From an uncultured Gammaproteobacteria bacterium (lineage in GTDB: Bacteria > Patescibacteriota > Microgenomatia > PFEM01 > JAHIFH01): a stretch of DNA of 64,000 nucleotides. The stretch lies in the NCBI GenBank assembly GCA_964653685.1, contig CAZZHA010000001.1, positions 5,794 through 69,793 of the forward strand, written 5' to 3'. A program made the position numbers and the translations under genes. Every line of letters begins with the position of its first letter. Positions within the stretch are counted from its first letter, which is position 1. Below are positions 1,662 to 57,621 of this stretch, piece after piece. The notes beneath the pieces are model-generated. The model ran no database searches and was not told the DNA's origin. It was given only the letters and a program-made list of their open reading frames with translations.

Positions 1662-1843
1662 TTTAATAAGAAGATATTAAACTTCACCTCCCAGCTTTTA
1701 TAATGCCGTATATTATACATCGAAACTGAAAAATAGCTGAGAGAATTAAAAATTTTAACTCTTGACTTTTTGGGAAAAAGATTTTACTGTTAATTTAATA
1801 TTCAATCTGCCCCCTAAAAGTTTAAGCCGATAAACTAAATAAG

Positions 1844-2734: not shown

Positions 2735-2737
2735 ATA

Positions 2738-3424
2738 ATGACTGGCGAAAAAACCGGAAATCAACCCTTAAATCCAGAAAGCTTAACAGCAGAATCACAG
2801 TTATGTCTTCAATTATTTTATATTGGCGCAATTAAATTCGGCGATTTCAGATTAAAATTACATGATAAACACCCAGAAGCACCCCCATCGCCCGTTTACA
2901 TTGACCTCAGACTTCTTCGAAGAGAACCTGAAGCTAAAGCTGCGGCAGTTGATGTTTATCTAGAGCTACTCAAACCACTAGAATTTGACTTGTTAGCTGA
3001 CGTTCCTACAGCGGCAACACCACTAGTTTCTTCCCTTTCAGATAAACTAGGTATTGGGATGATTACGCCTCGAACTGATGTAAAAAATCACGGCACTGGT
3101 GTAAAGATAGACGGAATGAGGGCTCTTGATCAGGGTAAGACCGTAGTTTTAGTCGACGATCTAGTAACTCGAGCAGATTCTAAATTAGAAGCAGCCAGGA
3201 TTCTTAGAGACGAAGGGTTTAGAGTAAGAGATGTGGTTGTCTTAGTTGATAGAAAACAAGGAGGCGAAGAACAACTCGCTGCTGAAGAAATTAAACTTCA
3301 TGCTGCTTTAACAATGGATAAAATGTTGGCTTTCTATAATGGAATGGGAATGATTACTAATCCCGAATATGCAAGAATAAATCAAGGACTAATAAATTTG
3401 AATAATTTCCTAGCAAGCCTATAA
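2738..3424 (+). CDS. pyrE: Orotate phosphoribosyltransferase
   Basis: 228 aa. PRPP-binding motif VVLVDDLVTRADSK. Starts 3 nt after the pyrF stop. Confidence 0.82.
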   Translation: MTGEKTGNQPLNPESLTAESQLCLQLFYIGAIKFGDFRLKLHDKHPEAPPSPVYIDLRLLRREPEAKAAAVDVYLELLKPLEFDLLADVPTAATPLVSSLSDKLGIGMITPRTDVKNHGTGVKIDGMRALDQGKTVVLVDDLVTRADSKLEAARILRDEGFRVRDVVVLVDRKQGGEEQLAAEEIKLHAALTMDKMLAFYNGMGMITNPEYARINQGLINLNNFLASL

Positions 3425-3452
3425 TCCCCTCTCTATAAAACTTTTTGAAAAA

Positions 3453-4673: not shown

Positions 4674-5953
4674 ATCTTTTTTAATCTCTTAAACGTCTTT
4701 TCTCTTCCTAAAACCTCTATCGTTTCAAAGAGAGGCGGAGTAGCGGTTTTACCAGTAAGGGCAATTCTGGTTGCCATAAAATATTTGCCAGTATGCCAAT
4801 TATTCTTCTCTGCCAAATCTCTGAATAATTTTTCTAATCTCTTTGCCTCCCAAACCCTATTTTTTTCTAACTCCATGATTGATTTTTCGAACTGTTCTTT
4901 GAGTAATTTTTCTCCCTGACTTTTTTTAATGAGTAATTTTTTATCAACCTTTGGTTCTCTAATAAAAAAGTCAACTAAATCAGGATAATCAGAAAGTTTA
5001 ATCAATCTGTCTTTAATTAAAGGAATGGTTTGTTTAATTAAACTATCTGCCATTCCTTTAGGTATGTATGGTTTAATTAATTGAAGTAGTTCTTTATCTG
5101 TCTTTTCCCTAAGATAAACACCATTTAACCAATCTAATTTTCTTAAATCAAAAACAGGAGCCGAAGTTGAAATCCTTTTAAAAGAAAAATATTTAATAAA
5201 TTCATCTAAACTAAAAACCGTTTTGTCTTGGGGGTGTGACCAACCCATTAAACCAAAAAAGTTAACCATCGCTTCGGGTAAATAACCTTGTTCCTGATAC
5301 CAAGAAAGAGCGACCAGGTTTTTTCTTTTTGAAATTTTTGATTGGTCAGGATTTCTTAAAAGAGGCAAATGAGCAAATTCTGGTACCTTAGCCCCTAAGG
5401 CTTGATAAAGCATTATTTGCCGGGGAGTGTTAGAAATGTGGTCTTCACCTCGAATCACCTGGGAAATTTTCATTAACCAGTCATCGATGACCACAGCAAA
5501 ATTATAAACAGGATAGCCATTTGACCTTAAGATAACAAAATCTTCAATCTGTTGATTATCAAACTCTATTCTTCCACGAATAAGATCTTGCCAAGAAGTT
5601 TTTCCTTTTAAAACCTTAAATCGAATTGCCCCTTCATCTTGGTAAGCAAGTTTTTTTTCTAGCAATTCTTGAGCATATTTCTGATAAAGACTTATTCTTT
5701 CTGATTGACGATAAGGCCCAAACTTGCCCCTAACGTCCGGACCCTCATCGTAATTTAAACCTAGCCAGTGCAAGCCATCAAAAATTGCTTTTTCCGCTTT
5801 AGGTACATGGCGTTTTATGTCTGTATCTTCGATTCGAAGAATGAATTTGCCTTTGTTTTTTTTGGCAAAAGCATAATTAAAAAGAGAAATGTAGGCGGTA
5901 CCAACATGGGCAAAGCCGGTTGGCGAAGGCGAAATTCTGACTCGGATGCTCAT
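4670..5953 (-). CDS. gltX: Glutamyl-tRNA synthetase (short form)
   Basis: HIGH region PSPTGFAHVGTA and KMSKS-like KISKRK. The ORF track starts at 5971, but the ATG at 5953 (MSIRVRISPSPTG) matches GluRS N-termini and lies 8 nt downstream of TGcTAAAAT. Confidence 0.9.
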   Translation of the reverse strand: MSIRVRISPSPTGFAHVGTAYISLFNYAFAKKNKGKFILRIEDTDIKRHVPKAEKAIFDGLHWLGLNYDEGPDVRGKFGPYRQSERISLYQKYAQELLEKKLAYQDEGAIRFKVLKGKTSWQDLIRGRIEFDNQQIEDFVILRSNGYPVYNFAVVIDDWLMKISQVIRGEDHISNTPRQIMLYQALGAKVPEFAHLPLLRNPDQSKISKRKNLVALSWYQEQGYLPEAMVNFFGLMGWSHPQDKTVFSLDEFIKYFSFKRISTSAPVFDLRKLDWLNGVYLREKTDKELLQLIKPYIPKGMADSLIKQTIPLIKDRLIKLSDYPDLVDFFIREPKVDKKLLIKKSQGEKLLKEQFEKSIMELEKNRVWEAKRLEKLFRDLAEKNNWHTGKYFMATRIALTGKTATPPLFETIEVLGREKTFKRLKKI

Positions 5954-6004
5954 TTGCCTTGATTTTAGCATAGCGTCACTTTATACTCAAAATAGATTTT
6001 CCAG

Positions 6005-7057
6005 ATGGCAACTCTAACTCAAACTGCCCAAACGACCCGGAAAGCGCTTAAATACGGCGTCATTGCCCTAGTCGTTATCTTTGTTCTGAAAATTGCCTGG
6101 GGAGTTGGGACTGATATCTGGAAAAAAATTCACCCACCCCCGCCACCACCACCAACTATGGCTTTTGGTCCTTTACCAAAATTAAAATTTCCAGAAAAAC
6201 AAACGCCTGAATTATCTTATCGCTTAGAAACTATCCAGGGAGCTCTGCCCCAATTTGACAATATTGATCGAGTTTACCTTTCACCTCAAAAACCGCCTAA
6301 TCTCTTGGCCTTGGATAGAGCCAAACAAAAAGTTCGTAAGATGGGCTTCACCGGCCAACCGGAAAAAGTTAATGAAAATACTTATCGCTGGACAACCGAG
6401 ATAACCCCAGCCACTACTTTAGAAATGAATATCAATACTGGTAATTTTCATCTTCGTTATCAATTTGAAAATGATCAAGAACTTTTAGTTCAAAAAAACC
6501 TGCCGACTAATGAACAAGCCGCCCAGGAAGCCAAAAGTTTCCTTCAAAACAATGGCCTGCTGACCGAAGATTTAGCCACTGGTAGTGCTGAGTTTGATTA
6601 TCTAAAATATATTTCCCCTAATTTGATTCCCGCCATTTCTCTTTCCGAGGCTGATTTTGTCCGGGTTAATTTCTTTAGAGCTGACCTTAATGACCTGAGA
6701 ATTTATCCACCTAACCCTAAAGAAGCCCTGGTTTCCTTTCTCTTTTCTGGCAGTCGACTCATGGGTAAACGGATTATCGAAATTAAATATACTTACCAAC
6801 CAATTGATCGCAATACCTCGGCAACTTATCCTCTTAAACCAATTAATAATGCCTGGCAAGAACTCCAATCAAAGCAAGGTTATATCGCCAATCTAGGTCA
6901 AAATGACGACAAACAGATTACCATCAGGAAAATTTACTTAGCCTATTATGATTCTGAAGAACCCCAAACTTTTATCCAGCCAATTTACATTTTCGAGGGT
7001 GACCATAATTTCTTTGCCTATGTTCCAGCCATTGACCCTACTTGGACGGAGAAATAG
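6005..7057 (+). CDS. Hypothetical membrane-anchored protein with a heptaproline run
   Basis: 350 aa. N-terminal TM (YGVIALVVIFVLKIAWGV) followed by HPPPPPPPT. No recognisable domain. Confidence 0.6.
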   Translation: MATLTQTAQTTRKALKYGVIALVVIFVLKIAWGVGTDIWKKIHPPPPPPPTMAFGPLPKLKFPEKQTPELSYRLETIQGALPQFDNIDRVYLSPQKPPNLLALDRAKQKVRKMGFTGQPEKVNENTYRWTTEITPATTLEMNINTGNFHLRYQFENDQELLVQKNLPTNEQAAQEAKSFLQNNGLLTEDLATGSAEFDYLKYISPNLIPAISLSEADFVRVNFFRADLNDLRIYPPNPKEALVSFLFSGSRLMGKRIIEIKYTYQPIDRNTSATYPLKPINNAWQELQSKQGYIANLGQNDDKQITIRKIYLAYYDSEEPQTFIQPIYIFEGDHNFFAYVPAIDPTWTEK

Positions 7058-8024
7058 TTGGGGTAATATTCTCCCAACGATGATTGCTAAAAGCCCAATC
7101 AACTAATCTAGCGGTTTCGCCAAAACGATCTTGACTACCTAAAACAACCGTAATTATTCCCCGACCATCTCGTTCAACATACCCTACTAAACATTCACCC
7201 GCTTCCTCAGTCCAACCAGTCTTCACCCCTTTCATCCCTGGTAGCCAAGAAAGTAATTCATTAATATTGTAAAGAACATGTTCAAATTGACCGGTCGTAT
7301 CAGTAACCACGATTTTGGGAGTGGCCACTATTTCACCCAAAAGTGGCTCTCTAATCACCAAGCTCGCTAATCTGGCTAAATCTAAAGCGGTTGAATAGGA
7401 ATAACCAATTATAAAATTACCTTCCTCATCAATATCCAAGCCCGTAGGGTTAACAAAATAAGTGTCGTTTAGGTTTAATTCCTTAGCTTTCTCATTCATC
7501 GCTTTAACAAACCCTTTTTCTCCACCTGGGTAGTTTTGGGCTAACAAAGTGGCCGCGTCATTGGCTGAAGCGACTAAGACACCATATAACAAATTCTTAA
7601 CCGTCATCACTTCTCCTTCTTTTAATCTCATGTCTTGACCTTGATTATTGATGCCAATAACTGTCAAAGTACTTTCCAAATCATAGTAGTCAAGGGTTAC
7701 TAAAGCCGTCATCAATTTCACGACCGAAGCCGGTAAAAGTTGAACTCTTTCATCCTTGGCAAACATAACAACAGCTGAATCACGATCAACAACAATGACT
7801 GACTTAGCCGTCAGAGATGGTGCCGTTATTCCCGCAAAATTAACTGGATAATCAGCCACTTTAGGCAACTCTAATTCAATTGGCTGAATTTTAGGTGGTT
7901 GGTAGGTAGCTTGAACAATTGAATACCAATTGTTGCTGGGAAAAAGAAAAAAAACTAGCCCAAATAAAAAAAGAAAAGCTCTTTTTATCTTAATAGTAGT
8001 CAAATCGGAATTTTTTGGATTCAC
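7038..8024 (-). CDS. D-alanyl-D-alanine carboxypeptidase (PBP5-like, serine type)
   Basis: 328 aa. SxxK (SVVKLM), SxN (SAND) and KTG (VKTGWT) motifs; N-terminal TM/signal. Confidence 0.88.
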   Translation of the reverse strand: MNPKNSDLTTIKIKRAFLFLFGLVFFLFPSNNWYSIVQATYQPPKIQPIELELPKVADYPVNFAGITAPSLTAKSVIVVDRDSAVVMFAKDERVQLLPASVVKLMTALVTLDYYDLESTLTVIGINNQGQDMRLKEGEVMTVKNLLYGVLVASANDAATLLAQNYPGGEKGFVKAMNEKAKELNLNDTYFVNPTGLDIDEEGNFIIGYSYSTALDLARLASLVIREPLLGEIVATPKIVVTDTTGQFEHVLYNINELLSWLPGMKGVKTGWTEEAGECLVGYVERDGRGIITVVLGSQDRFGETARLVDWAFSNHRWENITPTISPSK

Positions 8025-9385
8025 TTTTTCATTACTTTGATTTTGAGTTCTTTTAATTGAACTTCATCAACTTCACTGGGAGCCTCCATTACTGATGTCT
8101 GACCACCAGCCGTCATCGGAAAAGCAATTAGTTCTCGGACTGAACGTTCTCCCAAAGCGGCCTGTAAAAATCTATCAATTCCTGGGGCAATACCACCATG
8201 GGGCGGAACTCCATATTCAAATGCCCTTAAGAGATGACCGAATTTTTTCTCTATCTCTTTTTCCGAAAGGCCTAGAATTTTAAAAATTTTTCGCTGGATT
8301 TTGGGGTCAGTAATCCTAAGACTCCCTCCACCCACTTCCAAGCCGTTACAAACTAAGTCATGCTGCCAAGAGCGTGCTTTCATTGGGTCTTTATCTAACA
8401 AAGGCAGATCTTCATCCTTAGGAGCAGTAAAAGGATGGTGAGAAGGACTTAATTCTCTTTCTTTTGTCTTTTCAAACAAAGGAAAATCAATTACCCAAGC
8501 AAAAGCAACTACCTTAGGATCTTTTTTCTTACGCAGATCAAATTTATCACTGCCAAATTTTTTCATTGCTTCGGCATGACTAAAACGAGGAAAAGGCTTT
8601 TTAAAAACTCTCTTTTTTAAAACCTTCTCCGTTATCTCGGTAAAAAGAGTTTCAGTAAGATTAAGAATCTCTTCCTGGGTTGTAAAAGACATCTCCAAAT
8701 CAAGCTGAGTAAACTCTCCATAAGCCCGATCAATCCGAGGATCTTCATCACGAAAACAGCGGGCAATTTGGTAATACTTTTCAAATCCAGCTACCATTAA
8801 TAATTGTTTGTATTGCTGAGGAGCCTGGGGTAAGGCGTAAAACTTACCCGGCTGAAGTCGCGAGGGAACAATAAAATCACGAGCGCCTTCTGGTGTCGCC
8901 TTGGAAAGAATTGGTGTTTCGATTTCAATAAAACCTTTTTCATCAAGCCAATTACGAATGAATCTGATTACCTGATGTCGAATTTCAAGATTTCTGACTA
9001 ATCGGGGTCGGCGTAGATCAAGATAGCGATACTTTAACCGAGTCTCTTCACCAATTTGATAACCATCACCTCGAATATCAAAAGGTAAATCTTCTGATTG
9101 GGCTAAAATCTTGACCTTTTCTACCTCGACTTCAACTTCACCACTGGGAATCTTGGGGTTAATTAAATCTTTAGGTCTTTTTTTAACTTTACCTTCTACT
9201 TCAACAACGTCCGAAATCCTTAATTTCCCTAGTTTTTCTTTACCAACAATCTGAACCAAACCAGTTCTATCTTTCAAGTCAATAAAAACCAATTTACCAT
9301 GGTCGCGCCGCCGATCAATCCAACCATTAAGTCTAACTTTTTTACCTATCTTTTTAAGTATCTCTTTAATGAGAGTTCTTTCCAT
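8021..9385 (-). CDS. aspS: Aspartyl-tRNA synthetase, bacterial-type core without the GAD insertion domain
   Basis: 454 aa. Motifs QAPQQYKQLLM, FRDED, GGGSLR and PPHGGIAPGIDR. FGSDKFDLRKKKDPKVVAFAWVIDFPLFE joins directly where the GAD domain normally sits. Confidence 0.9.
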   Translation of the reverse strand: MERTLIKEILKKIGKKVRLNGWIDRRRDHGKLVFIDLKDRTGLVQIVGKEKLGKLRISDVVEVEGKVKKRPKDLINPKIPSGEVEVEVEKVKILAQSEDLPFDIRGDGYQIGEETRLKYRYLDLRRPRLVRNLEIRHQVIRFIRNWLDEKGFIEIETPILSKATPEGARDFIVPSRLQPGKFYALPQAPQQYKQLLMVAGFEKYYQIARCFRDEDPRIDRAYGEFTQLDLEMSFTTQEEILNLTETLFTEITEKVLKKRVFKKPFPRFSHAEAMKKFGSDKFDLRKKKDPKVVAFAWVIDFPLFEKTKERELSPSHHPFTAPKDEDLPLLDKDPMKARSWQHDLVCNGLEVGGGSLRITDPKIQRKIFKILGLSEKEIEKKFGHLLRAFEYGVPPHGGIAPGIDRFLQAALGERSVRELIAFPMTAGGQTSVMEAPSEVDEVQLKELKIKVMKK

Positions 9386-9423
9386 ATTTTAGATTCTATC
9401 CTCTAAAAGGATTTTTTGCAATT

Positions 9424-11067
9424 TTATTCTGGAATTTTAATGTCTTTGATTTTTAATTCCAACCGCTGAAGGCCATTCCATTGATTGAGAAAAAGATTAT
9501 AGGCAAGGTCAACTGGTTGTTTGGTTGAAAGCTGAGGTAATAATTCTCCTTGACCAAAAGCAATTACCTCAAAACCATTAACTCTAAATTTAAGATGTTG
9601 ATTATCAGCCCCAACTTTTTTAAGGTTAGCAATTCTTACTTGCCGACTGGAAAAGACCGGTTGAGGATTATTCATCCCAAAAGGGGCAAATTTATTAACT
9701 TCTTGATAAAGAGCTAAGTTTAAATCAATTAACTCAACCTCTATCTCAATTTCTATTCTCGGTCCTAATTTTTTCTTGCCTAAATCTTTTTCCGCCTTTT
9801 TTATTAATCTCTGTTTAGCTTCTTCTAATTTCTCCTGACTGACATCAAAACCAGCCGCCAAACGATGACCGCCATGATCACCAATAATATCTTTCAATTC
9901 CCGAATGGCTTCAATAATATTAAACTCTTCAATTGACCGGCCCGAACCTACCCACCGATCTTTTCTAGGCGCTAAAATAATGGCTGGTCGATAAAATTCG
10001 TCTTTTAATTTACTTGCCACCAAACCAACAACACCATGCTCATAAGACTGATGATAAATAAAAATTAAAGAACTCTCACCATCTTCTTTTAACCAAAGTT
10101 CTCGAGCGTGAAGAGTAGTTTGTTTCATTAATTCCTGACGCTCACGGTTTTTCTGATCAATTTTCTGGGCTAAACTGATAGCTCGATTTTCATCATTAGT
10201 ACAAATTAAGCGAAGAGCTTCCATCGGATCATCCATCCTGCCGCTGGCATTGATTCTTGGACCAATAATAAAACCGACTTCATAGGTATCAATCTTTTTT
10301 TTATCAAGACCAGCGAATTGATAAAGAGCTAACAAACCAGCTCGCTTAGTTTTGTTAACCTGACTCAATCCGAATTTAACAATCGAGCGGTTAGGACCAA
10401 TCAAGGGGACCATATCGGTTATTGTTCCAATGGTAACTAAATCTAAACCAAGGGGTTTGGCTTTAGATTTAATTTTTTCAACCAGCCACTTAGCCAAAAA
10501 CCAGGCTACACCACAACCAGCTAATTGGGTGGTGTGGATAATGGCTTTTGCCTTAGGTTTCTTTTTTCCAGGCTGATGGTGATCAGTAATAATCACATCA
10601 ATCCCTGTTTTTTTTGCCCGAGTTACTTGACGATAAGCAACGATCCCTTGGTCAACCGTAATAATCAATTTCACTCCCTCTTTAGCCATTTGATTAATGA
10701 TACTAGCTTTCAGACCATAGCCTTCTTCTCTGCGGGGGATAAAGGGCAGGACATCTAAACCTAATTTATTGAGGGTTTCCCACATGATGGCGGTCGCGCA
10801 AACACCATCGGTATCATAATCACCGTAAACAATCACTTTCTCTTTTTTCTTAATTGCCTGCCTAATTCTCTTAAGCGCTTTATTTAATTGAACCAAGGAA
10901 ATACCAACATCTTGAGGTGTCAATTGGTAGGGATCTTTGGGATTAAGAAATTCTTTTTGTTGTTTTTTTGTTTTCAAATTACGGTTCTTAAAAAGAGCTT
11001 TAACTATTTCTTCTCTTCTTTCTTGGAGTTTGGTAGATTTGATTCTTGCTAAAACTTTCCACCTCAT
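9424..11067 (-). CDS. recJ: Single-stranded-DNA-specific exonuclease RecJ
   Basis: 547 aa. DHH-family motifs DYDTDGV and ITDHHQP, plus a DHHA1-like GGHRLAAG. Confidence 0.9.
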   Translation of the reverse strand: MRWKVLARIKSTKLQERREEIVKALFKNRNLKTKKQQKEFLNPKDPYQLTPQDVGISLVQLNKALKRIRQAIKKKEKVIVYGDYDTDGVCATAIMWETLNKLGLDVLPFIPRREEGYGLKASIINQMAKEGVKLIITVDQGIVAYRQVTRAKKTGIDVIITDHHQPGKKKPKAKAIIHTTQLAGCGVAWFLAKWLVEKIKSKAKPLGLDLVTIGTITDMVPLIGPNRSIVKFGLSQVNKTKRAGLLALYQFAGLDKKKIDTYEVGFIIGPRINASGRMDDPMEALRLICTNDENRAISLAQKIDQKNRERQELMKQTTLHARELWLKEDGESSLIFIYHQSYEHGVVGLVASKLKDEFYRPAIILAPRKDRWVGSGRSIEEFNIIEAIRELKDIIGDHGGHRLAAGFDVSQEKLEEAKQRLIKKAEKDLGKKKLGPRIEIEIEVELIDLNLALYQEVNKFAPFGMNNPQPVFSSRQVRIANLKKVGADNQHLKFRVNGFEVIAFGQGELLPQLSTKQPVDLAYNLFLNQWNGLQRLELKIKDIKIPE

Positions 11068-27991: not shown

Positions 27992-28264
27992 TTACCTGAC
28001 CGCCTTCTTTAATGGTTTGCCTGGAGAAAATCTAGGAGCCCGATGACTTTTAACCATTTTCTTTTCACCGCTTCCAGGAACAATAACTGGCTTTTCTTTA
28101 ACCTTAGCAACTCGAAAAGTACCAAAACCAGAAAGAACGACTTTATCACCTTTTTTTAAAGCATTAGCTATTTCAGTTAAAAAAGTGTCAATTGCCTCTC
28201 GAGAAGCCCTTTTAGTTAAATGGGCCTTAGCCGCTACCAAAGTCACAATTTGTTTTTTAGTCAT
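27992..28264 (-). CDS. hup: HU family DNA-binding protein
   Basis: 90 aa. GFGTFRV..R.ARNP-like arm region (SGFGTFRVAKVKEKP). SD AAAGGAGGTGA. Confidence 0.92.
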   Translation of the reverse strand: MTKKQIVTLVAAKAHLTKRASREAIDTFLTEIANALKKGDKVVLSGFGTFRVAKVKEKPVIVPGSGEKKMVKSHRAPRFSPGKPLKKAVR

Positions 28265-34478: not shown

Positions 34479-34778
34479 TCAACCACGAATCATTTTCACT
34501 CGACCTCCCTCAATCCTAATAGCTTTACCTTCAACTAAACCTTCGCTTACTTTTTTTCTAGCGGAAGTGAGGATTCGTTGAAAAGTGGATTGAGAAACTT
34601 TCATCTTTTTGGCCGCTTTAATTTGTTCAACACCTTGATAATCAGCTGAACGAATGGCTTCTAATTCATCGACACTTAATTTAACCTCCCTTAAATAGCG
34701 CAAAGGTATTCCCCGGGGCTTGTAGTAAGTCACTCCTGGTTGAAATGATATCCACCGCCATCTTTTTGGTCTAGGCAT
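34479..34778 (-). CDS. DUF134 (UPF0251) putative DNA-binding protein
   Basis: 99 aa. [23 protein letters not shown]-terminus and a sigma-70 region-4-like HTH ([27 protein letters not shown]). Confidence 0.82.
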
Positions 34779-49649: not shown

Positions 49650-50505
49650 TGTCTTTTGCCTCCTCAACTGGTTCTTCTTTTGTTTTTTTCTCTTTTTCCT
49701 CCACTGATTTTTCCTCCTGACCTGATTGTGGTTTGGCTTCAGTTTCTCCAGCAGCTACCAAAGCTTCTTTGGCTTCTTCTTCTCGCCGCAAACGTTCAGT
49801 TCGCTGCTCCTCGGTTTCTTCAATCTCCTTTTTACCTACCTCCATTAAAGGCACAAAACGCTTGGTCTTGCCCGTTTTGGTAATAATCAAAAGCCCGTTT
49901 TGGGCGCCTGGCACCAATCCTTTGATTAATAATTCTTCATTTTCCTTATCAATTGCCTGAATTGTCAATCCCTTGACGGCTATTCGAGCATTACCGGCCC
50001 TCCCGGGCATTTTCTTACCTTTATGAACTCTACCAGGAGTGGTGCCTTGACCAATTGAACCTGGTGCTCTTTCTCGATCAGATTGACCATGGGTTCGCGG
50101 TCCACCTTTAAAACCCCAACGCTTCACAACACCGGTAAAACCCTTACCCTTTGACCAACCAGTCACTTTTATCTGGTCGCCTGGCTGAAAAATATCAGCG
50201 ACTTTAAGCCGCTCACCCACTTTAATTTCATCCCCAAGAGGCTTCTCTAATCTAATTTCCCGCAAAAAACGAGGAGCCTTTTCTAATTTAGCTCCTCTTA
50301 AATGTCCTTTTAATGGTTTCTTAATCTTAGTCATCTTTTTTTCTCCCCAGCCGACCTGAACTGCATGATAGCCATCTTTTTTTTCATCTCGAATCTGAAC
50401 CACATAACAAGGTCCAGCCTTAATTCTGGTTACTGGTATCCTGGTGCCATCTTGAGTAAATCTCTGATTGACTTCTTTTTTTATGCCTAAGATTGTGTTT
50501 AACAT
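49642..50505 (-). CDS. rplC: 50S ribosomal protein L3 with a long acidic C-terminal extension
   Basis: Real start MLNTILGIKKEV at 50505. FKGGPRTHGQSDRERAPGSIG. The tail is rich in E/K (..EEAKEALVAAGETEAKPQSGQEEK..). Confidence 0.94.
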   Translation of the reverse strand: MLNTILGIKKEVNQRFTQDGTRIPVTRIKAGPCYVVQIRDEKKDGYHAVQVGWGEKKMTKIKKPLKGHLRGAKLEKAPRFLREIRLEKPLGDEIKVGERLKVADIFQPGDQIKVTGWSKGKGFTGVVKRWGFKGGPRTHGQSDRERAPGSIGQGTTPGRVHKGKKMPGRAGNARIAVKGLTIQAIDKENEELLIKGLVPGAQNGLLIITKTGKTKRFVPLMEVGKKEIEETEEQRTERLRREEEAKEALVAAGETEAKPQSGQEEKSVEEKEKKTKEEPVEEAKDNG

Positions 50506-50518
50506 TTTGACCACCAAA

Positions 50519-50539
50519 AAGAGTGCCGGAGGCACTCTT
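50519..50539 (-). terminator. Terminator-like hairpin in the rplC leader (candidate attenuator)
   Basis: Minus strand reads AAGAGUGCC-UCC-GGCACUCUU, followed by UUUGGUGG. The hairpin ends 13 nt before the rplC ATG at 50505. Confidence 0.6.
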
Positions 50540-50606
50540 AGGGTTACTCCATTAACTAAATTAGTTTACTTTCAATAGGTGTTTAACCTCACCTCCATTA
50601 GCAAAT

Positions 50607-50635
50607 ATTATAGAAAAATTCAGGATAAAAAGCAA
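50607..50635 (-). promoter_or_regulatory. Promoter for rplC and the downstream ribosomal genes
   Basis: Minus strand reads TTGCTT (50635-50630), a 17-nt spacer and TATAAT (50612-50607). Confidence 0.6.
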
Positions 50636-50668
50636 GCTGATTTTATTGTGAGTAAAATTAGAGCTAAT

Positions 50669-50962
50669 TTAATCAATTCCCCAGAATTTCTTCTCGCCCT
50701 CTTCATCTGGACCAATGAATTTCAGTTGTAAAAAATCCTTTAAGTCACTAATAAAATGGCCAATGCCAAAAGAAAAAGATAATTGTCCTAAAAGATGCTG
50801 ATAAAAAAATAAACCAAGCAGCATTAACATCACCCCATAAATCCAATGATGAGGAGCCCAAGTGGGATTATTAAGTTTCATATTAAGATAATAATGGCTC
50901 CATCTTCCAAGTAGATATCCTATTAAAGCAGCAATGACGAAAAAGAGGATTTTCCAGATCAT
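50669..50962 (-). CDS. Small hypothetical membrane protein
   Basis: 97 aa with three hydrophobic helices. TGgTAGAAT lies 7 nt upstream of the ATG. Confidence 0.55.
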   Translation of the reverse strand: MIWKILFFVIAALIGYLLGRWSHYYLNMKLNNPTWAPHHWIYGVMLMLLGLFFYQHLLGQLSFSFGIGHFISDLKDFLQLKFIGPDEEGEKKFWGID

Positions 50963-51029
50963 TTTCTTAATTCTACCAAACCAAACGATATTGACCTTTT
51001 AATTTTTCTGCTATAATTATTTACATTAT

Positions 51030-51590
51030 ATGCTGGTTAAAAAAATTATTCTCATTATCCTTGCTTTAGGAGCAGTTGGTACCTTAAGTTTTTTTCTTCT
51101 TAATAAAAATAGTTTGCCAGAGGTTACTCAGCAGGTTGGGATGGAAAAAGAAAATCTCGATGACCAATGGTTAACCTATACCAATGATTCTTATCAATAC
51201 GAAATTAAGTATCACCGTGACTGGCACAAGCAGGAAGAAAATGAACCACCCTACCCTCCGCCACCTGCGGGAATGAACTTCAGCCGGCGTTGGCTTGAAC
51301 CACTAGAGGTTTGTGATTTTCAGATTTCATCAAGCGATATCGTTGATAATTTTGAAGGGGAAATTGAGAGTCTCTCCCAAGACACTAATAAGCAAATGTC
51401 TCAAGCAGTAATCGCTGGCCAAAAGGCAACCAAGTTCGTTAGTTCAACCGAAAACCAATTAGTTGAGAGCTATTACCTAACTTATAAAAGAAATTCATTT
51501 AATTTGGGATTTAATATTCTCCGAGGGGAACACTTTAATACCTGTCAACAGGTCTTTAACCAAATGATTGCTTCTTTTAAGCTTTTATAG
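51030..51590 (+). CDS. Hypothetical secreted/anchored protein
   Basis: 186 aa. N-terminal TM (IILIILALGAVGTLSFFLL). No recognisable domain. Confidence 0.55.
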   Translation: MLVKKIILIILALGAVGTLSFFLLNKNSLPEVTQQVGMEKENLDDQWLTYTNDSYQYEIKYHRDWHKQEENEPPYPPPPAGMNFSRRWLEPLEVCDFQISSSDIVDNFEGEIESLSQDTNKQMSQAVIAGQKATKFVSSTENQLVESYYLTYKRNSFNLGFNILRGEHFNTCQQVFNQMIASFKLL

Positions 51591-52272
51591 CTTTTATTAA
51601 TAATCTTGTTGGCATTGAAGAATATTTCTTATAGTCTTTTTTATTCTTTTTAGCCTTTTTACCCACAGGGGTGGGTTCTTCAACACTTAACAGTTCAAAA
51701 CCAAAACTCATAATCGTGTTTATATAGTCAGAAAACTTTTTCGGGTGATATTTAATTTCTGTTCCCCAAGGTGTTTTCTCTATCTTTGCTTTATTACTAA
51801 AGTATTCTGAATGATTACTAACAAACCGAAGTGGATGAATAGTAATAAAAAATAGATATCCTCCTTTTGCTAACCATCTAGAAATACTCTCCATTGTTTT
51901 CTTAAAATCCTTTTGACTTAAATAATTAAAAGTCATATTACTTACGACAAGGTCTAAGCTTTCATTCCGTAGTTTTAAATTAGACAAGTTTGCCTGTATA
52001 AACCTTATATTGGGAAAAGAATTTCGGGCGATATTTAGCATATCAGGACTTATGTCAGTTCCGATAAGATTTTTTTCCCTCACTCCCAAATCAAGAAGTA
52101 GTTTTATTGTTCTTCCAGTTCCACACCCAGCATCAAGAACTCGCATCTTACTTTCCAATATTGGTTTTAAATGCCTTTCCATTGCTGGTTTTTCTACAAA
52201 TTTCCAACTAAATGATTTCTCTGAAAACTGAATATATTTAGCAGCTTGCACACCTGAGTATTTTACTTTCAT
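51577..52272 (-). CDS. Class I SAM-dependent methyltransferase
   Basis: 231 aa. Motif I VLDAGCGTGR, motif II DLVVSNMTFNY. The 3' end overlaps the convergent gene by 14 nt. Confidence 0.85.
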   Translation of the reverse strand: MKVKYSGVQAAKYIQFSEKSFSWKFVEKPAMERHLKPILESKMRVLDAGCGTGRTIKLLLDLGVREKNLIGTDISPDMLNIARNSFPNIRFIQANLSNLKLRNESLDLVVSNMTFNYLSQKDFKKTMESISRWLAKGGYLFFITIHPLRFVSNHSEYFSNKAKIEKTPWGTEIKYHPKKFSDYINTIMSFGFELLSVEEPTPVGKKAKKNKKDYKKYSSMPTRLLIKAIKA

Positions 52273-52340
52273 GGGGAGTCAATTATATCACTAGCTATGT
52301 AAATACAAAAACCCAGTAAATCGGGCTTTTCTATCCCTGA

Positions 52341-52373
52341 CTCCCTATCGTGGACGAAGTTAGAACTGGTTTG
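52341..52373. repeat. Island repeat copy 1
   Basis: CTCCCTATCGTGGACGAAGTTAGAACTGGTTTG. Lies 4 nt beyond the stop codon (52378-52380) of the EamA-like gene and 53 nt upstream of the -10 box of the methyltransferase gene. Confidence 0.7.
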
Positions 52374-52377
52374 AGCT

Positions 52378-52800
52378 TTAAATGCTAAGAATATAAATAC
52401 TTAATATTGCTAAAACAAGCCCTGTTATTTTTATTAATGTCAGTCTTTCGCCAAAAAATAGCAGACCAATGATCGCCGAAAAAATAATTGTAGAAATTGA
52501 CAAAAGAGGTAATCCAAGGCTAATAGGAGCCTTCTTTTGATACATCAAAAAATAAAGAAGGCTGCCAAAAGCACTAAAAATTCCTGCTAAACAAGCCAGT
52601 TTTACTCCTTTTGAGGTAATGGTTATTTCTTGACCAGTTGTTTTGAAAATAAAAATTAACCCCAAAGTAATTATTGCTGAGGCGACTGAGAGAGAAATTG
52701 ACCCAACAAGAGCATGTAGATGATTGCTGCTCAATTTAAGAAAAGCGTTGTAGATGGCAAAGAAAAAACCAGCGGCTATGCCAAAAATTACCCAATTCAT
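52378..52800 (-). CDS. Half-size EamA/DMT-superfamily transporter
   Basis: 140 aa, 4-5 TM, single EamA-like domain. TGgTATAAT lies 6 nt upstream of the ATG. Confidence 0.7.
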   Translation of the reverse strand: MNWVIFGIAAGFFFAIYNAFLKLSSNHLHALVGSISLSVASAIITLGLIFIFKTTGQEITITSKGVKLACLAGIFSAFGSLLYFLMYQKKAPISLGLPLLSISTIIFSAIIGLLFFGERLTLIKITGLVLAILSIYILSI

Positions 52801-52816
52801 GTTTTCATTATACCAA

Positions 52817-52844
52817 ACAAAAAAAGCCCATTAGCTTGGGCTTT
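52817..52844 (-). terminator. Rho-independent terminator
   Basis: Minus strand reads AAAGCCCA-agctaa-TGGGCTTT followed by TTTTGTTT. Downstream of the 52935-53426 gene. Confidence 0.6.
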
Positions 52845-52934
52845 CTGAAATTAGTTCGGCCAATAAAGCCATTTACAAACTCCAAATGTAAATTGGTCCA
52901 ACCAAAAACCTTTTGCTGGGAAACCAATTTTAAA

Positions 52935-53426
52935 TCACGATCCGGCTATTTTTGTCAATTTGATAACCGTAACGACTCCATTCTTTTCATTTCCCTGAAC
53001 CCTGGCCATAGAACCAAGCTCTAATTTGCTTTTATCACAAACTTCTTCCCCACTACCCAAATCACATTTACTTGAGGCATTAAAGGCGAGATTAGCTGTG
53101 TTAGCTGGCCGACCGGGTGATTCGTAAAGCAAAACCCAATTACCAGTTTGCCTTTCGGCATTAGCATCCCAATCAGTTAAATTGCCTGTCTTATCAAAAT
53201 TCTCGACCAAAACCGGCTGGCTATCTGATTCGTCAAGGTCTTGTTCAGCCTCTTCTATTGGAGCACTTGTCTCTTCGGAACTACTACCAGTGGGTAATTG
53301 AATTCCTGGCAAATTTATTGGTTTCTTGATTATTTTTGCCCCACCATAAACGACTATGGCTCCTACCACCAAAAGAATAATCAAAATTAACAAAGCCGCT
53401 CCTTGTTCGTTTTTTGATTTTCTCAT
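52935..53426 (-). CDS. Hypothetical secreted/anchored protein
   Basis: 163 aa. N-terminal TM (AALLILIILLVVGAIVVYGG). SD AAGGGGGTGAGG. Confidence 0.6.
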   Translation of the reverse strand: MRKSKNEQGAALLILIILLVVGAIVVYGGAKIIKKPINLPGIQLPTGSSSEETSAPIEEAEQDLDESDSQPVLVENFDKTGNLTDWDANAERQTGNWVLLYESPGRPANTANLAFNASSKCDLGSGEEVCDKSKLELGSMARVQGNEKNGVVTVIKLTKIAGS

Positions 53427-53471
53427 CTTTCCTCACCCCCTTTCTTTTTCCTTTAAAAGGTTCCTAATTCT

Positions 53472-53495
53472 CTCCTGTGGATAAAGTTAGAACTT
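53472..53495. repeat. Island repeat copy 3 (shortened)
   Basis: CTCCTGTGGATAAAGTTAGAACTT. Shares CTCC..GTGGAnnAAGTTAGAACT with copy 1. Abuts the GNAT stop codon. Confidence 0.55.
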
Positions 53496-53961
53496 ACTCA
53501 CTAATTTTCTTTTCTAGACAAATATCTATCTCTAAGTACCCATTACTACGATAAAAATCCAAGGCTTCTCTATTTTCCACATAGCAATTAAGATATATTT
53601 TCTGGAAACCTTCTCGCTTTGCCCAATCTGTTATGGTGTCTAATATTTTTTTACCGATTCCTTGTTTCTTTTTTTCAGGTATTACTCCTAGATTATCAAT
53701 TTCAAAATACCTACTTTTACGATATGATACTTCTTTTTCTTCGCCATTCGCGTATCCAATCATCTGTCCATCCTCTTCAGCGATCAAAAAACACCCCTTT
53801 CTACTTCTAATTGCTTCTTTGAAATATTTCTCTCCCTGAGGGGTATAGGCAAAGTCCTCAACAGCATCTTCGTCATATTCAGAATTATTCATGAAGATTT
53901 GCTTATTCAATTTTTTTACGGCTGGTAAATCGCGGATCGTTGCTTTCCGGATAGTTATCAC
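53494..53961 (-). CDS. GNAT family N-acetyltransferase
   Basis: 155 aa. Acetyl-CoA motif VIPEKKKQGIGKKIL. GTG start, 6 nt after TGaTATAAT. Confidence 0.85.
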   Translation of the reverse strand: MITIRKATIRDLPAVKKLNKQIFMNNSEYDEDAVEDFAYTPQGEKYFKEAIRSRKGCFLIAEEDGQMIGYANGEEKEVSYRKSRYFEIDNLGVIPEKKKQGIGKKILDTITDWAKREGFQKIYLNCYVENREALDFYRSNGYLEIDICLEKKISE

Positions 53962-54027
53962 AATTGAATTATATCAAAAGTGGTTCAACAATTTTTATCT
54001 GAAGTAGAACATCTATCTTCAAACTTA

Positions 54028-54060
54028 CTCCCTATCGTGGGCGATGTTCAGACTAGTTGG
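54028..54060. repeat. Island repeat copy 2
   Basis: CTCCCTATCGTGGGCGATGTTCAGACTAGTTGG. The first 13 nt are identical to copy 1. Lies 54 nt upstream of the -10 box of the GNAT gene. Confidence 0.7.
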
Positions 54061-54252
54061 GAACAAATTTAAGCAAGAAAAATCTAATAAATGAAACCAA
54101 AGATACTTGTTCGCAGAATCACTCGGGAAGAGAGTGATTAGAGCTGGATAAATGACCGGACAAAAATTTATCATATGTTGATATAGTTATAAATAGTCTC
54201 CGCAGGAAGTCTCACTTCAGGTTTAGGAGTTTGATAGTAAGTGGTTTGTTAT

Positions 54253-55779
54253 TTATTTAAATATTTCTCTAAGAAAGCTAAGGATTTTTTGCCAAAAGGT
54301 TAGTTTTGTTTCAGACAAAGGAGTAATTATTGGTTCTGGATTTGAAGTAATTTGTGGTGTGGGACTTGGTTGTTGTTCTATTTTTTCTTTAATCAGTTCT
54401 GTTGTCTGACCCAAGACTTCATTTTCCGAGGTTGTCTTTTTAGCTACAGCCAATTTTTCAGTTTTGGCAGAAATGTAATTAGACCACCTTCCCGGAGCGC
54501 AGCCGTTGCCGGCTCTGATTGTAAAATAATAGGTAGTGCTTGGGGCAAGAGCTTTTATAGTGTAGTTGACTACTCCAATCTTTTGAGCGGAATTAAATTG
54601 GGTGCCAAAACGCCAGTCGCCTTCCTTATAACCATAGGCAATAAAATAATAGGAAACATAATCGGTAACCGGCATAAAATATAAAGTGGCGGAATTTTCA
54701 GTGGTATCAATTTGAAATAATTTTGGCGCAGTTAAAGGCGGCCAATCTCCACAACCAAGGGCAGAAGTAGAACTTGTAGAAGTAGAACCGGTATCTTCTG
54801 CTACCGTAAAAGTAGTGAAATGGGCAGCCGTAAAAGTAACTAAATGAGTCGTTCGGTTATAACTTAATCCGGACACAATGCCACCAGTATCAGTTTGTCC
54901 ATCAACTAATATTTTTGGGCTGTTTAGGGTAATACTATACATCGTTAAAGAAGCTTGGGTATCGGTTAAATCTTTAATGAGGTCAGCGTCAAGGCTGATT
55001 ACTCCCTGGGAAATGCTTAATTTGCTGTCTAATGATTGCATCCAGGTCAAAGCATCGCGATCAGTGAAATTCATCTCCGCCAAAAAAGTTATTTTGCCAA
55101 TGTTTTCTCCACCTTCACTTTTCAGGAAATATAATCCGGAGATACGGGAAAAGTCGCCTTGATCGCCTAAGTTTGTGGCTACACCTTCATTGGTCATTTG
55201 TGTAGTAATAGTACTGATTGTTGGACATTCACCAGAACCTGGGTTGCACCATCCGCGAGTAGGAGAAGCGGCCGAATTCCAGGTTTGTTCATCTAAGTTG
55301 TAATAGGCAGATTTGCCTTGTTCTATGGTAACGCCAGTGGCGTCACTCGGATCAGCACCAGGATCACAAGTTTCGCTACCGTACTTTACGGCATAAACAC
55401 TATTGCTCTCATCTCTGAAAATTACCAAACAGGCGCCATCATCAGGGATACGAGTGTCATTATCGGTCGCGAAAGTCAAAAAACCGCCGCGGGGGACGCT
55501 CCCACTTAAATCTTGTGAATAGAAATAAGTGTAGTTTGGTTCTGTACCCTGATAAATTACCAATCTCCACCCGGAAAGACTAAGAGCTGTGTCCTGATCA
55601 GGATTTAGCAGCTCAATCCATTCTTCGCCGCCAGCACTAGGCTGCGCTACAAACTCGTCAATCATTACCACAGGATCACCATTTGCCCTTACCGGAGAAA
55701 TTCTTACGACAACGGCAAAAAAAGAGAAACAAAGAAGAAGCAGAAAAACAAAAACTAGTTTTTTCATCACTAAAAACAT
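54253..55779 (-). CDS. Secreted lamin-tail-domain (LTD) protein with a C-terminal fibronectin type III domain
   Basis: LTD motif VVMIDEFVAQPSAGGEEWIELLNP..LSGWRL. Fn3-like TAPKLFQIDTTENSATLYF..STTYYFTIRA. The ORF-track start at 55827 lies in the transposase relic. ATGs at 55779/55767 precede the signal peptide KKLVFVFLLLLCFSFFAVV. Confidence 0.8.
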   Translation of the reverse strand: MFLVMKKLVFVFLLLLCFSFFAVVVRISPVRANGDPVVMIDEFVAQPSAGGEEWIELLNPDQDTALSLSGWRLVIYQGTEPNYTYFYSQDLSGSVPRGGFLTFATDNDTRIPDDGACLVIFRDESNSVYAVKYGSETCDPGADPSDATGVTIEQGKSAYYNLDEQTWNSAASPTRGWCNPGSGECPTISTITTQMTNEGVATNLGDQGDFSRISGLYFLKSEGGENIGKITFLAEMNFTDRDALTWMQSLDSKLSISQGVISLDADLIKDLTDTQASLTMYSITLNSPKILVDGQTDTGGIVSGLSYNRTTHLVTFTAAHFTTFTVAEDTGSTSTSSTSALGCGDWPPLTAPKLFQIDTTENSATLYFMPVTDYVSYYFIAYGYKEGDWRFGTQFNSAQKIGVVNYTIKALAPSTTYYFTIRAGNGCAPGRWSNYISAKTEKLAVAKKTTSENEVLGQTTELIKEKIEQQPSPTPQITSNPEPIITPLSETKLTFWQKILSFLREIFK

Positions 55780-55847
55780 TTTTACCTTTTTTGATAAAAA
55801 TGTCAACATCTTATCCATCCACCACATATTGGAATTATTAGGGTAAT

Positions 55848-56048
55848 CAGTTTACCAAAGTCATAAAGGAACCCAGAACCACTGTCTGTCTGGGTCGCTT
55901 TGATCTGAAAGGGAGTGATTTTAATAAGCTTGTCTAAGAAATCAGCCAACGTTCTTGAAAAATGACTCTTGTAGATGTAGGAGAAAGTAAATTCAGAAAT
56001 GATATCAATGTCAGTAAGAATATACCTCTTGATTCCATGTTCGAATCT
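55848..56048 (-). mobile_element. Degenerate fragment of an rve (DDE integrase-core) transposase, IS481/IS3-like
   Basis: Own translation gives RFEHGIKRYILTDIDIISEFTFSYIYKSHFSRTLADFLDKLIKITPFQIKATQTDSGSGFLYDFGKL. It fits the rve pattern hhhD..S+...a......FL......p..I..vqTDNGsEF. There is no start codon and both ends are missing. Confidence 0.6.
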
Positions 56049-56105
56049 AACATTTGAAGTTGCGAAGAATATTTAAATTTGCTTAACTTATATTAGAGTT
56101 AGAAA

Positions 56106-57272
56106 ATGATGAAAATAATTACAGATAAATTAACCGCCCTGAAGAAAATAAAGCTATCCAAACTCCATTTAATACTCATAGCTTTGGGCTTATTGGTTTT
56201 ACTAGGTACAATCTCTGCTATTTATTTACAGAAAAGGCAACAAGGTTTCTTAAGAGAGGGGTCTGGACAACCACAGGGTTGGGGACAAAGACCGGGAGGA
56301 GCTCAGGATCTCGGCGAACCGCCATCGACCTCTCTCAAACCGCGTTGGAGTGGTTCTATTCCCAAACCCCCCAAAGAAAAGATTACCTACTACAAAGGCA
56401 TTTGGGGTGCGACATGGATTTATCCGGAAGAACATTCCAATCTTAAACCTGAACCTGAAAAATACCGCGGTTGGGGAGTGAATATTATTAATATCTCCCC
56501 AGGTTTTGAAATTAACAAAAACGGCGAGGTGCGCTACCCTTTGGACTTCCCTACTTATGAAGATATGGATGCCAGGATTGGCGAAATTGCCGAAATGTTT
56601 TACAAAGAAGATATTTATTTGGCCATGACGATTCAGGTTCATTATAAAGAAGAGTTTGTCCGCGGGGCCGAATGGGGCGGAGAAACGGCTTATATACCCA
56701 AGGAAAAGACACAAATTCCTGGATATTTCAAAAATTTTGACAATATTGTTGTTGATATGGCCAAAATCGCCCAAAAATATCACTTGGAATTGTTTTCGCC
56801 GTTAGGTGAACCGGAGAATGTATTTTACGATCCTAAATTAGCTTCCGATTGGAGTCAACAGGTTCTGCCCAAGGTTAAGAAATACTACAAAGGTAAAGTT
56901 TATTACAAGGGTGATTTACACAAAGGAGAGGGGGACAATATGAACTTCAGAGGCTATGATGTTTTAGGAATTATGCCTCACCCGGCTGAGTTAGCGTATA
57001 ATTTTAAGGCTCTCCGAGAAAAAGTGGTTATCAATATGGACAAAGGTCTGGCTTGGGCCAAAAGAGATGGAGTAAATGAGGTAGTCGTAGCCGAACATGG
57101 ATATGAAGGAGGGGGCAAGATGTGGCCTGCAGAAAACTTCGATATCCTCTTGGAAGAAAGCAGTAAAAGATTAAACGGGATTTTTTTAAGCGATCCATTT
57201 CCAACAGTTCTAAAAACAAAACAAGGTGAGCAAATTATCTCTGTGATGAAAAGGTGGTTTTCCTCCAAGTAA
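56106..57272 (+). CDS. Hypothetical membrane-anchored extracytoplasmic protein, possibly a TIM-barrel glycoside-hydrolase-like fold
   Basis: 388 aa with an N-terminal TM. Weak GH5-like hints (SPLGEPENV, VVVAEHGYEGGG). No firm family assignment. Confidence 0.45.
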   Translation: MMKIITDKLTALKKIKLSKLHLILIALGLLVLLGTISAIYLQKRQQGFLREGSGQPQGWGQRPGGAQDLGEPPSTSLKPRWSGSIPKPPKEKITYYKGIWGATWIYPEEHSNLKPEPEKYRGWGVNIINISPGFEINKNGEVRYPLDFPTYEDMDARIGEIAEMFYKEDIYLAMTIQVHYKEEFVRGAEWGGETAYIPKEKTQIPGYFKNFDNIVVDMAKIAQKYHLELFSPLGEPENVFYDPKLASDWSQQVLPKVKKYYKGKVYYKGDLHKGEGDNMNFRGYDVLGIMPHPAELAYNFKALREKVVINMDKGLAWAKRDGVNEVVVAEHGYEGGGKMWPAENFDILLEESSKRLNGIFLSDPFPTVLKTKQGEQIISVMKRWFSSK

Positions 57273-57312
57273 CCAGTCTGCTCCGCGGGCAAGACTCGAA
57301 CTAACATTAAAC

Positions 57313-57621
57313 TTACATCTTGATTTCAATATCAACGCCTGCGGGCATTTCGAGGTGCATTAAGGAGTCAATTGTTTTACTAGTTGGTTCAAGAATATCA
57401 ATTAATCTTTTATGAGTAAGAATTTGGAATTGTTCTCTGGCGTCTTTGTCAGTGTGGGGACTGGTGGTAACCGTAATCAGTTTTCGGTGGGTTGGTAAAG
57501 GCACAGGACCCACTACCTTGGCACCACTAGCTAAGGCTGTTTCTAAGATTTTTTCGCAACTTTCATCGATGACTCGATGATCATACGCTTTTAAACGTAC
57601 CCTTATTCTGCCTTTTGGCAT
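57313..57621 (-). CDS. rpsJ: 30S ribosomal protein S10
   Basis: 102 aa. [16 protein letters not shown] and [36 protein letters not shown]. Confidence 0.96.

Follow-up and report, generated by a model that had tools for sequence, protein, structure and literature searches.

The 64-kb stretch of contig CAZZHA010000001.1 analysed here (hereafter the window) contains an island of accessory genes on the minus strand (50536..57312), located between rpsJ, encoding ribosomal protein S10 (57313-57621), and rplC, encoding L3 (49642-50535). Within this island, a short sequence recurs in the vicinity of four genes, all on the minus strand, that encode a methyltransferase (51577-52272), an EamA-like protein (52378-52800), a protein of 163 amino acids (the 163-aa open reading frame, ORF), and a GNAT protein (53494-53961). 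The methyltransferase, EamA, and GNAT assignments agree with those of a preliminary description of this DNA. The recurrent sequence, 26-28 nt in length, is a real and conserved signal at gene ends in this clade of the Candidate Phyla Radiation (CPR). The element is conserved across species whatever gene precedes it, and it stays with its gene when that gene is located elsewhere in the genome. The description best supported is that of an oriented cis element placed at the 3' ends of accessory transcription units.

Copies of the element in the window

On the gene (minus) strand, the core of the element reads AGTTCTAAC-TTYGTCCACGA-(TA)-GGGAG, and that of copy 1 AGTTCTAAC-TTCGTCCACGA-TA-GGGAGT. 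Copies 1-3 form a single repeat family, with 100, 80, and 69% identity across 35 nt. The preliminary description had located them correctly, as a ~30-nt element present three times; its three clear copies stand, the core is corrected to 26-28 nt, and a fourth, degenerate copy is added. With a position matrix built from the three copies, these score 44-56 bits and the runner-up site in the 64 kb reaches 10.7 bits, a value that falls in the range of shuffled sequences (maximum 6-17). Since the next best score lies within the shuffled range, the window holds exactly three clear copies, which are confined to 1.7 kb. As had been noticed, copies 1 and 2 have in common the 13-mer CTCCCTATCGTGG, with exact matches in the window only at 52341 and 54028, and copies 1 and 3 share GTGGANNAAGTTAGAACT, matched exactly in the window only at 52350 and 53477.

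Copies 1 and 3 had been placed 0-4 nt past the stop codons of island genes. They do lie behind these stops, at corrected offsets: the core of copy 1 (AGTTCTAACTTCGTCCACGATAGGGAGT, 52340..52367, minus strand, profile E 1.6e-6) begins 10 nt past the EamA stop, and copy 3 (core AGTTCTAACTTTATCCACAGGAGAGAAT, 53467..53494, minus strand, profile E 0.003) overlaps the GNAT stop, the last A of which is its first base. Copy 3, the most diverged and most strain-variable of the copies, lies within the spacer of 67 nt that precedes the 163-aa ORF; that ORF has a Shine-Dalgarno sequence of its own and lacks a -10 box. Nine nt after copy 1 comes a weak hairpin with a T-run (AAAAGCCCGATTTACTGGGTTTTT, 52307..52330, minus strand), read from the sequence; the terminator scan of the window did not report it. 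A comparable A-tract/CCC...GGG/T-run hairpin also follows a copy in a related locus (L035, 9826/9830).

Copy 2 (core AGTCTGAACATCGCCCACGATAGGGAGT, 54027..54054, minus strand, profile E 3.9e-4) lies inside a doubtful ORF of 49 aa and 198 nt after the nearest upstream stop, that of a gene for a 524-aa LTD/fn3 protein. Between this gene and copy 2, a stretch of ~190 nt (54061-54252, minus strand) has no convincing gene. It contains a 6-bp hairpin (TCACTC...GAGTGA) and the 49-aa ORF (54025-54174) that spans copy 2, and it may be the remnant of a lost gene whose 3' element survived. As for the imperfect inverted repeat previously drawn around copy 2, its arm GATGTTCAGA is found at 54043-54052, one base away from where it had been placed, and the fold is not better than that of shuffled sequence (z = -0.47). 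The degenerate fourth copy (AGCTCTAATTTTACTCACAA / AGCTCTAATTTTACTCACAATAAAATCA, 50638-50665, minus strand; hereafter w97) begins 3 nt past the stop of a 97-aa ORF, and its profile score is weak taken alone (E 38).

Counterparts of the window are present in three other assemblies, L001 (a groundwater metagenome scaffold, ANAN16-1), L002, and L003, the latter two with 99.7-99.96% identity to the window. In all three, copies 1 and 2 are unchanged. Copy 3 holds 4 of the 12 differences found in L003, a cluster of four single-nucleotide polymorphisms (SNPs), two of which shift it toward copy 1. The differences that separate L001 and L003 from the window are tightly clustered (50200-50212, 52983-53019, 53459-53492, and 54179-54187), which suggests patchy recombination between strains and not evenly spread mutation. 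Six of these changes fall in the 13 nt at 50200-50212, within the L3 gene, at a hairpin-like AGCGGCTTAAAGTCGCT.

The element and stop codons in related genomes

Relatives were located via the methyltransferase and L3 proteins, and the homologues are labelled 'Patescibacteria group bacterium' by NCBI. A first profile, built solely from the three window copies, recovers the element in three other genomes of the CPR clade, with E-values of 1.1e-5 in L044, 0.026 in L035 (9826), 0.06 in L033 (2079), and 0.51 in L035 (7925). These matches are marginal by score, except that of L044. In 5 of the 10 best non-seed matches, 3-12 nt separate model position 1 from the end of a stop codon of the same orientation. 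The profile, refined to seven sequences, was then searched in 208 kb, where members have E <= 0.003 and noise has E > 1. In loci added later, the best matches were again at stops: TGA followed by GTTCTAACTTTACCC at L049 6069, TAG followed by GTTTGAACTCTATCCACG at L046 16796, and L046 10472. Hence, the motif search in relatives that the preliminary description had proposed finds copies that are not randomly placed and that lie directly past co-oriented stops.

In L044, AGTTCTAACTTCGTCCACGA lies 10 nt past the stop of the sole gene inserted between S10 and L3. It is identical to copy 1 at 20 of 20 nt, and the two have the same offset from the stop (10 nt). The protein encoded upstream of the L044 copy, of 140 aa like the EamA protein upstream of copy 1, is unrelated to it (BLASTP E 4.1), and the flanks of the two copies are unalignable. 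The L033/L046 organism encodes a GNAT protein 85% identical to that of the window, at a different locus. The unit alignable between the two loci begins ~35 nt before the start, with a shared TGRTATAATYCAATT promoter, and extends through the gene into a diverged element at the stop (TGA-ACCCTAACCTCCTCCACGAGG), just past which homology is lost. Copy 2 is not part of this conserved GNAT unit. Within L033, the copies at 7896 and 10719 are 83% identical to each other.

Ten of the 11 members begin -1 to +10 nt after a stop codon, and all 11 are co-oriented with the upstream gene. The four independent members outside the window start 2-10 nt past a co-oriented stop; the probability of four members at -1 to +12 nt past such a stop is 2.4e-6 under a null restricted to intergenic DNA, and that of the four-member register is 5e-9 against a null of all positions. 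Block A of the element (GTTNNAAC) is by itself 4-fold enriched in the post-stop zone (P = 6e-4), and no general post-stop composition bias was found among 245 genes. Three members face convergent genes (L035 7919/7925, L046 10468/10472, and L049 6069), which leaves no room for a downstream promoter in these cases. The two L035 copies, separated by 2 kb, are oppositely oriented, each behind its own gene. According to our own classification, a promoter, a convergent gene, or a hairpin with a T-run comes next at 9 of the 11 members. About 4% of the genes in these loci carry the element, which is therefore not a general terminator of these organisms.

Two other repeats were seen in the related loci. 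A second repeat of 26 nt, GGGGAGTTCAATTAAACACTTTGGGG, occurs in L035 at about 7840-7870 and 9895-9925, 20-40 nt downstream of each element copy. Its absolute orientation does not change between the two sites, so that it is inverted relative to one of the elements. In L033, a perfect direct repeat of 69 nt (8102-8170 and 8288-8356, 186 nt apart) lies inside a gene for a 167-aa zinc-finger-like protein and corresponds to an internal duplication of a coding segment.

Variable junctions, promoters, and rejected identities

Within this clade, the junction between S10 and L3 is a hotspot of accessory genes. It holds nine genes in the window, none in L043 (L3 76% identical to that of the window), one in L044 (75%), one on the opposite strand in L045 (76%), and 15 in L033 (87%, L3 protein P0024), which are all different except the last, the methyltransferase gene. 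The L033 island extends from 375 to 10854, and the junctions of L043, L044, and L045 are at about 9350-10000. The S7-EF-G junction is also variable: the window has a sulfotransferase gene and an ORF of 118 aa there, L043 three genes, and L044 a single ORF of 116 aa. No integrase, resolvase, or transposase was found in the 64-kb window, and no recombinase is listed in the Pfam annotation of any of the related loci fetched.

Downstream of the island, the L3 gene has a leader (50505-50612, minus strand) that starts with a TATAAT box (50607-50612), continues with ~60 nt conserved in L033, L043, L044, and L045, and ends in a strong hairpin with a T-run (AGAGTGCCTCCGGCACTCTTTTT, 50516-50538). This hairpin encloses the GTG listed as the L3 start (50535); the true start would seem to be a GGTGG-N6-ATG at 50505-50507. 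The whole resembles an attenuator-type leader, of which the L4-regulated S10 leader of Escherichia coli is an example.

In both the window and the L033 islands, accessory genes have extended -10 boxes (TGNTATAMT), devoid of a -35 box, 6-9 nt before their start codons (51009, 52290, 52815, and 53976 in the window, that at 51009 being 12 nt before the start). Because these boxes adjoin the start codons, mRNAs with little or no leader are expected. Other genes in both islands have Shine-Dalgarno sequences of the GGGGGTGA type instead. The island contains four of the window's five TGNTATAAT boxes, and a start codon follows each of the four at 6-12 nt. The methyltransferase and GNAT genes both have the extended -10 box TGATATAAT on the minus strand, at 52282..52290, 9 nt before ATG, and at 53968..53976, 6 nt before GTG, respectively; the latter box is kept with its gene in L046 and L048. 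The distances of 9 and 6 nt between TATAAT and these start codons are those of the preliminary description, and its term 'leaderless-type promoter' fits, as TGNTATAAT stands 6-9 nt before the start codon. From copies 1 and 2 to GATATAATT, it had counted 53 and 54 nt; measured from 52341 and 54028 to the first base of that sequence, the gaps are 51 and 52 nt, and the difference of 1 nt between them is retained.

Measured from position 1 of the element to the next TATAAT, the distance is 80 nt for copy 1 (methyltransferase promoter), 81 nt for copy 2 (GNAT promoter), and 82 nt for L033 2079/2082. All three copies precede leaderless-type promoters, and their spacers are unalignable. A second set of distances, 53, 53, and 57 nt, is found for w97 (from 50665), the clear L044 copy, and L033 10721, which are all upstream of the conserved L3 promoter. 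Common descent of the L3 promoter region can account for the pair at 53 nt; the trio at 80-82 nt is less easily explained and keeps a promoter-related role at the DNA level alive. The remaining members have no TATAAT box at a comparable distance, and several have no -10 box within 150 nt.

A number of known identities were considered for the element and rejected. Folded as DNA, neither strand of the intergenic regions with copies outperforms shuffled sequence (z between -1.45 and +1.08), which argues against an attC-like or REP-like (repetitive extragenic palindrome) hairpin and against a meaningful inverted repeat around copy 2. At the copies, Rfam gave no match at the gathering threshold, nor at E <= 5. 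The element is not an intrinsic terminator: it has no stem and no T-run, the terminator scan called none at the copies, and the folds are insignificant. Small palindromes in the consensus (AGTT-CT-AACT and TCGT-CC-ACGA) show no covariation in diverged members. A Xer/dif-like (pdif-module) site, which would have two inverted arms of 11 bp around a centre of 6-8 bp, was discarded because the two halves (left, AGTTCTAAC; right, CACGATAGGGAG) are not complementary and no fold is significant. In the window, ARAGORN finds only a tRNA-Pro, at 31700, and no T-arm is seen by eye, against a tRNA fragment or an att site at a tRNA. A coding remnant, named in the preliminary description as one of two outcomes that would undo its claim, is not what was found: the upstream proteins are unrelated, the offsets from the stop (-1, 2, 6, 8, and 10) use all three frames, there is a 2-nt indel, and the differences between copies 1 and 2 show no synonymous bias. 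Small peptides on either strand were likewise rejected, peptide likeness following DNA likeness with no constancy of frame.

The segment CCACGATAGGGAG resembles CACTATAGGGAGA, the promoter sequence of T7-type single-subunit RNA polymerases. A promoter of this kind would keep a constant distance from its recognition region to the initiating GGG, stand upstream of genes, and come with its polymerase. This lead was abandoned in view of the 2-nt indel between CCACGA and GGGAG, the three convergent contexts, the lack of such a polymerase in the window (no ORF exceeds 708 aa), and the absence of enrichment in viral contigs. Block A, as GTTCTAAC, may also be likened to GCTCTTTAAC, the boxA sequence of NusB/NusE. 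Copy 3 contains the DnaA-box 9-mer TTATCCACA; the members match it at 4-9 of 9 positions (median 6), mostly with G as the final base. Boxes with up to one mismatch are not enriched in the window (22 vs. 15.6 +/- 4.2). The likeness to a DnaA box is only moderate, and DnaA would not account for blocks A and C, which are equally conserved. Other perfect or near-perfect DnaA-box 9-mers lie at 10533-10541 (TTATCCACA) and 53573-53581 (TTTTCCACA), and no origin-like clustering of such boxes was seen in the window.

The element is not a widespread exact repeat either. The core pattern, searched in 185,579 species genomes (one each), gave 10 single hits in unrelated phyla; the pattern of 18 invariant positions gave two chance hits in the metagenomes of the Joint Genome Institute (JGI); and viral-contig scans of the core returned numbers close to chance. 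Exact matches to the core elsewhere disagree with the element outside the searched positions. One viral sequence (L010/L016/L017), in which four extra bases match, has the motif antisense in an ORF of a phage with 46% G + C, and was taken as chance. A literature search retrieved no paper that links Patescibacteria to integron-like sites or that describes the element.

Possible functions and comparison with known systems

A directional transcription stop, or insulator, at the end of transcription units is the function that we favor, tentatively, as one that is quite possible though short of probable. The element would be a lineage-specific, asymmetric, and unstructured cis signal that limits the transcription leaving the upstream accessory gene. 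A sequence-specific protein bound to the DNA could block RNA polymerase in one orientation or, alternatively, a factor could read the same sequence in the nascent 3' untranslated region (3'-UTR). The next unit would thereby be shielded from read-through, and its -35-less extended -10 promoter would yield an almost leaderless mRNA. Such a stop would matter because read-through would both occlude this promoter and make a leadered mRNA devoid of a Shine-Dalgarno sequence. The stop itself, the reader protein or factor, and the level of action, DNA or RNA, are our inferences.

Several observations weigh against this function. There is no candidate binding protein: an OmpR-type regulator (972-1661), a DUF134 protein (34479-34778), and HU (27992-28264) are encoded in the window and nothing links them to the element. 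No known RNA mechanism applies either, because there is no conserved secondary structure and no Rfam family. Copy 3 and the L046 copy at 16795/16796 lie between co-directional genes only 67 and 39 nt apart, in apparent operons, and a complete halt there would switch off the gene that follows. Copy 2 is separated by its 198 nt from any upstream stop, and the regular spacings to TATAAT (80/81/82 and 53/53/57 nt) are not predicted by a pure 3'-end signal. Finally, only ~4% of the genes in the loci carry the element.

The preliminary description had offered three roles, namely an operator or activator site, a 3'-UTR element, and a recombination scar at cassette boundaries. The tie of the element to the 3' end of the upstream gene is the best supported of these. 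A recombination site for mobile gene cassettes seems to us unlikely. The element would be a sequence-defined, non-hairpin attachment site at the 3' end of a cassette, attC-like in function, and units of promoter, gene, and element would be inserted at hotspots such as S10-L3, and excised from them, by a recombinase whose gene lies elsewhere. The 0, 1, 1, 9, or 15 unrelated accessory genes found at this junction in close relatives, the GNAT unit made up of promoter, gene, and element at different loci in two species, and the starts of copies at or over stop codons all agree with it. So do the unrelated genes that precede the element and its 20/20-nt identity across species with 75%-identical L3 proteins, and at its L3-proximal boundary the single insert of L044 bears the element, where the window has a degenerate copy at the equivalent place. 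However, neither the 64-kb window nor the Pfam annotation of the related loci offers an integrase, resolvase, or transposase, no hairpin goes beyond shuffled expectation, and the two L035 copies, 2 kb apart in opposite directions, are unlike a cassette array. Moreover, most boundaries in both islands carry no element (163-aa ORF to EamA; about 12 of the 15 L033 spacers), and no partner copy is found at the empty site of L043 or at S10-side junctions. A scar marking cassette boundaries would stand without a recombinase, dyad symmetry, a partner site, or regular occurrence at every boundary. More doubtful still appears a gene-cassette system of CPR bacteria not known before, in which the element would serve as a sequence-defined, non-hairpin attachment site for the exchange of self-contained promoter-gene-site units, the recombinase being encoded at another place in these tiny genomes.

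We are equally doubtful of an upstream promoter element, or transcription-factor operator, acting on the downstream gene, for which the spacing regularity is the ground: a factor bound ~65-95 bp upstream of the start site (about -65 to -38 at L3) would activate or repress the -35-less extended -10 promoters. The 80/81/82-nt and 53/53/57-nt distances, the first trio with unalignable spacers, are what such an operator would explain, as are the invariance of copies 1 and 2 among strains and the situation of copy 2, with a promoter downstream and no gene within 198 nt upstream. Nonetheless, the convergent genes faced by three members, the several others with no -10 box within 150 nt, and the constant co-orientation with the upstream gene in register with its stop fit poorly with a downstream target, and the 53/53 match can be traced to common descent. 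Most extended -10 promoters in both islands also do without the element; the GNAT homologues of L046 and L048 keep the promoter and not copy 2, and the L033 methyltransferase gene keeps a similar promoter behind an upstream spacer of only 32 nt. A functionless short interspersed repeat, selfish or neutral, whose copies would be kept alike by ectopic gene conversion and persist only where harmless, just past stops, is the reading we find least credible. It would account for the likeness of copies within a genome (80% between copies 1 and 2, 83% for L033 7896/10719), for the occurrence at only ~4% of genes, and for the four-SNP cluster of copy 3, with two changes toward copy 1 as expected of gene conversion. 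Yet there is no mobility machinery, terminal repeat, or target duplication, and the 20/20-nt identity across species within unalignable flanks points to constraint or recent transfer. Besides, co-orientation and the register of -1 to +10 nt are hard to obtain by neutral survival, because intergenic DNA offers both orientations and many positions.

We rate the element as new to the literature search and to Rfam, and as belonging among oriented intergenic cis elements. Because CPR/Patescibacteria are largely uncultured, their gene regulation and genome plasticity are almost unexplored. An element that marks the 3' ends of accessory genes across species gives a concrete handle on both, since it can be searched in metagenome-assembled genomes (MAGs) and metatranscriptomes and used as bait in pull-downs. 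Even with no function assigned, it is a useful marker of the variable regions in this clade.

Comparison with known systems helps to situate the element. Like REPs and bacterial interspersed mosaic elements (BIMEs), it is a short, multi-copy intergenic repeat, often directly past stop codons. REPs, however, are imperfect palindromes that form hairpins, usually in hundreds per genome, whereas the element is not palindromic and has only 3-4 copies in 64 kb. With intrinsic terminators it shares a post-stop site at unit ends, and copy 1 and L035 9830 are followed ~10 nt further on by a weak hairpin. In contrast with terminators, what is conserved is sequence and not structure, and the island has a canonical terminator separately (52821-52846).

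Integron attC sites also stand at the 3' end of small, unrelated, and mostly co-oriented accessory genes, at or over the stop codon, in loci whose gene content varies between close relatives. They are defined not by sequence but by a folded imperfect palindrome with conserved R and L boxes, that is, an inverted repeat (R''-L''...L'-R') forming a hairpin of about 55-140 nt. They also come with a neighbouring IntI tyrosine recombinase or in a regular array of one site per cassette (CALIN). The element differs in being conserved in sequence, with no significant hairpin and no integrase nearby, in being absent from most boundaries, and in occurring in opposite orientations 2 kb apart. The stop register is seen, but the genes have their own extended -10 promoters, in contrast with promoterless cassette ORFs. 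If a recombination site were nevertheless the true function, it would reveal a shuffling of accessory genes into a ribosomal-protein gene cluster.

The closest described analogue is found in the repressor sites (operators and stoperators) of cluster A mycobacteriophages. These asymmetric 13-mers are found in promoters and short intergenic spaces; they are oriented with transcription and halt elongation in one orientation only (PMC9283540). The element is likewise asymmetric, multi-copy, intergenic, and co-oriented, and some copies lie at a fixed distance upstream of promoters. On the other hand, stoperators are 13-mers in the genome of a phage that encodes the cognate repressor, whereas the element is 26-28 nt long, chromosomal, present in several CPR species, and devoid of sequence similarity to stoperators. 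To our knowledge, its register with stop codons is also much tighter than anything known for stoperators. If the directional stop were true, it would help to explain how dense, independently promoted leaderless genes are insulated from one another, and the element would be a chromosomal counterpart of the phage stoperators.

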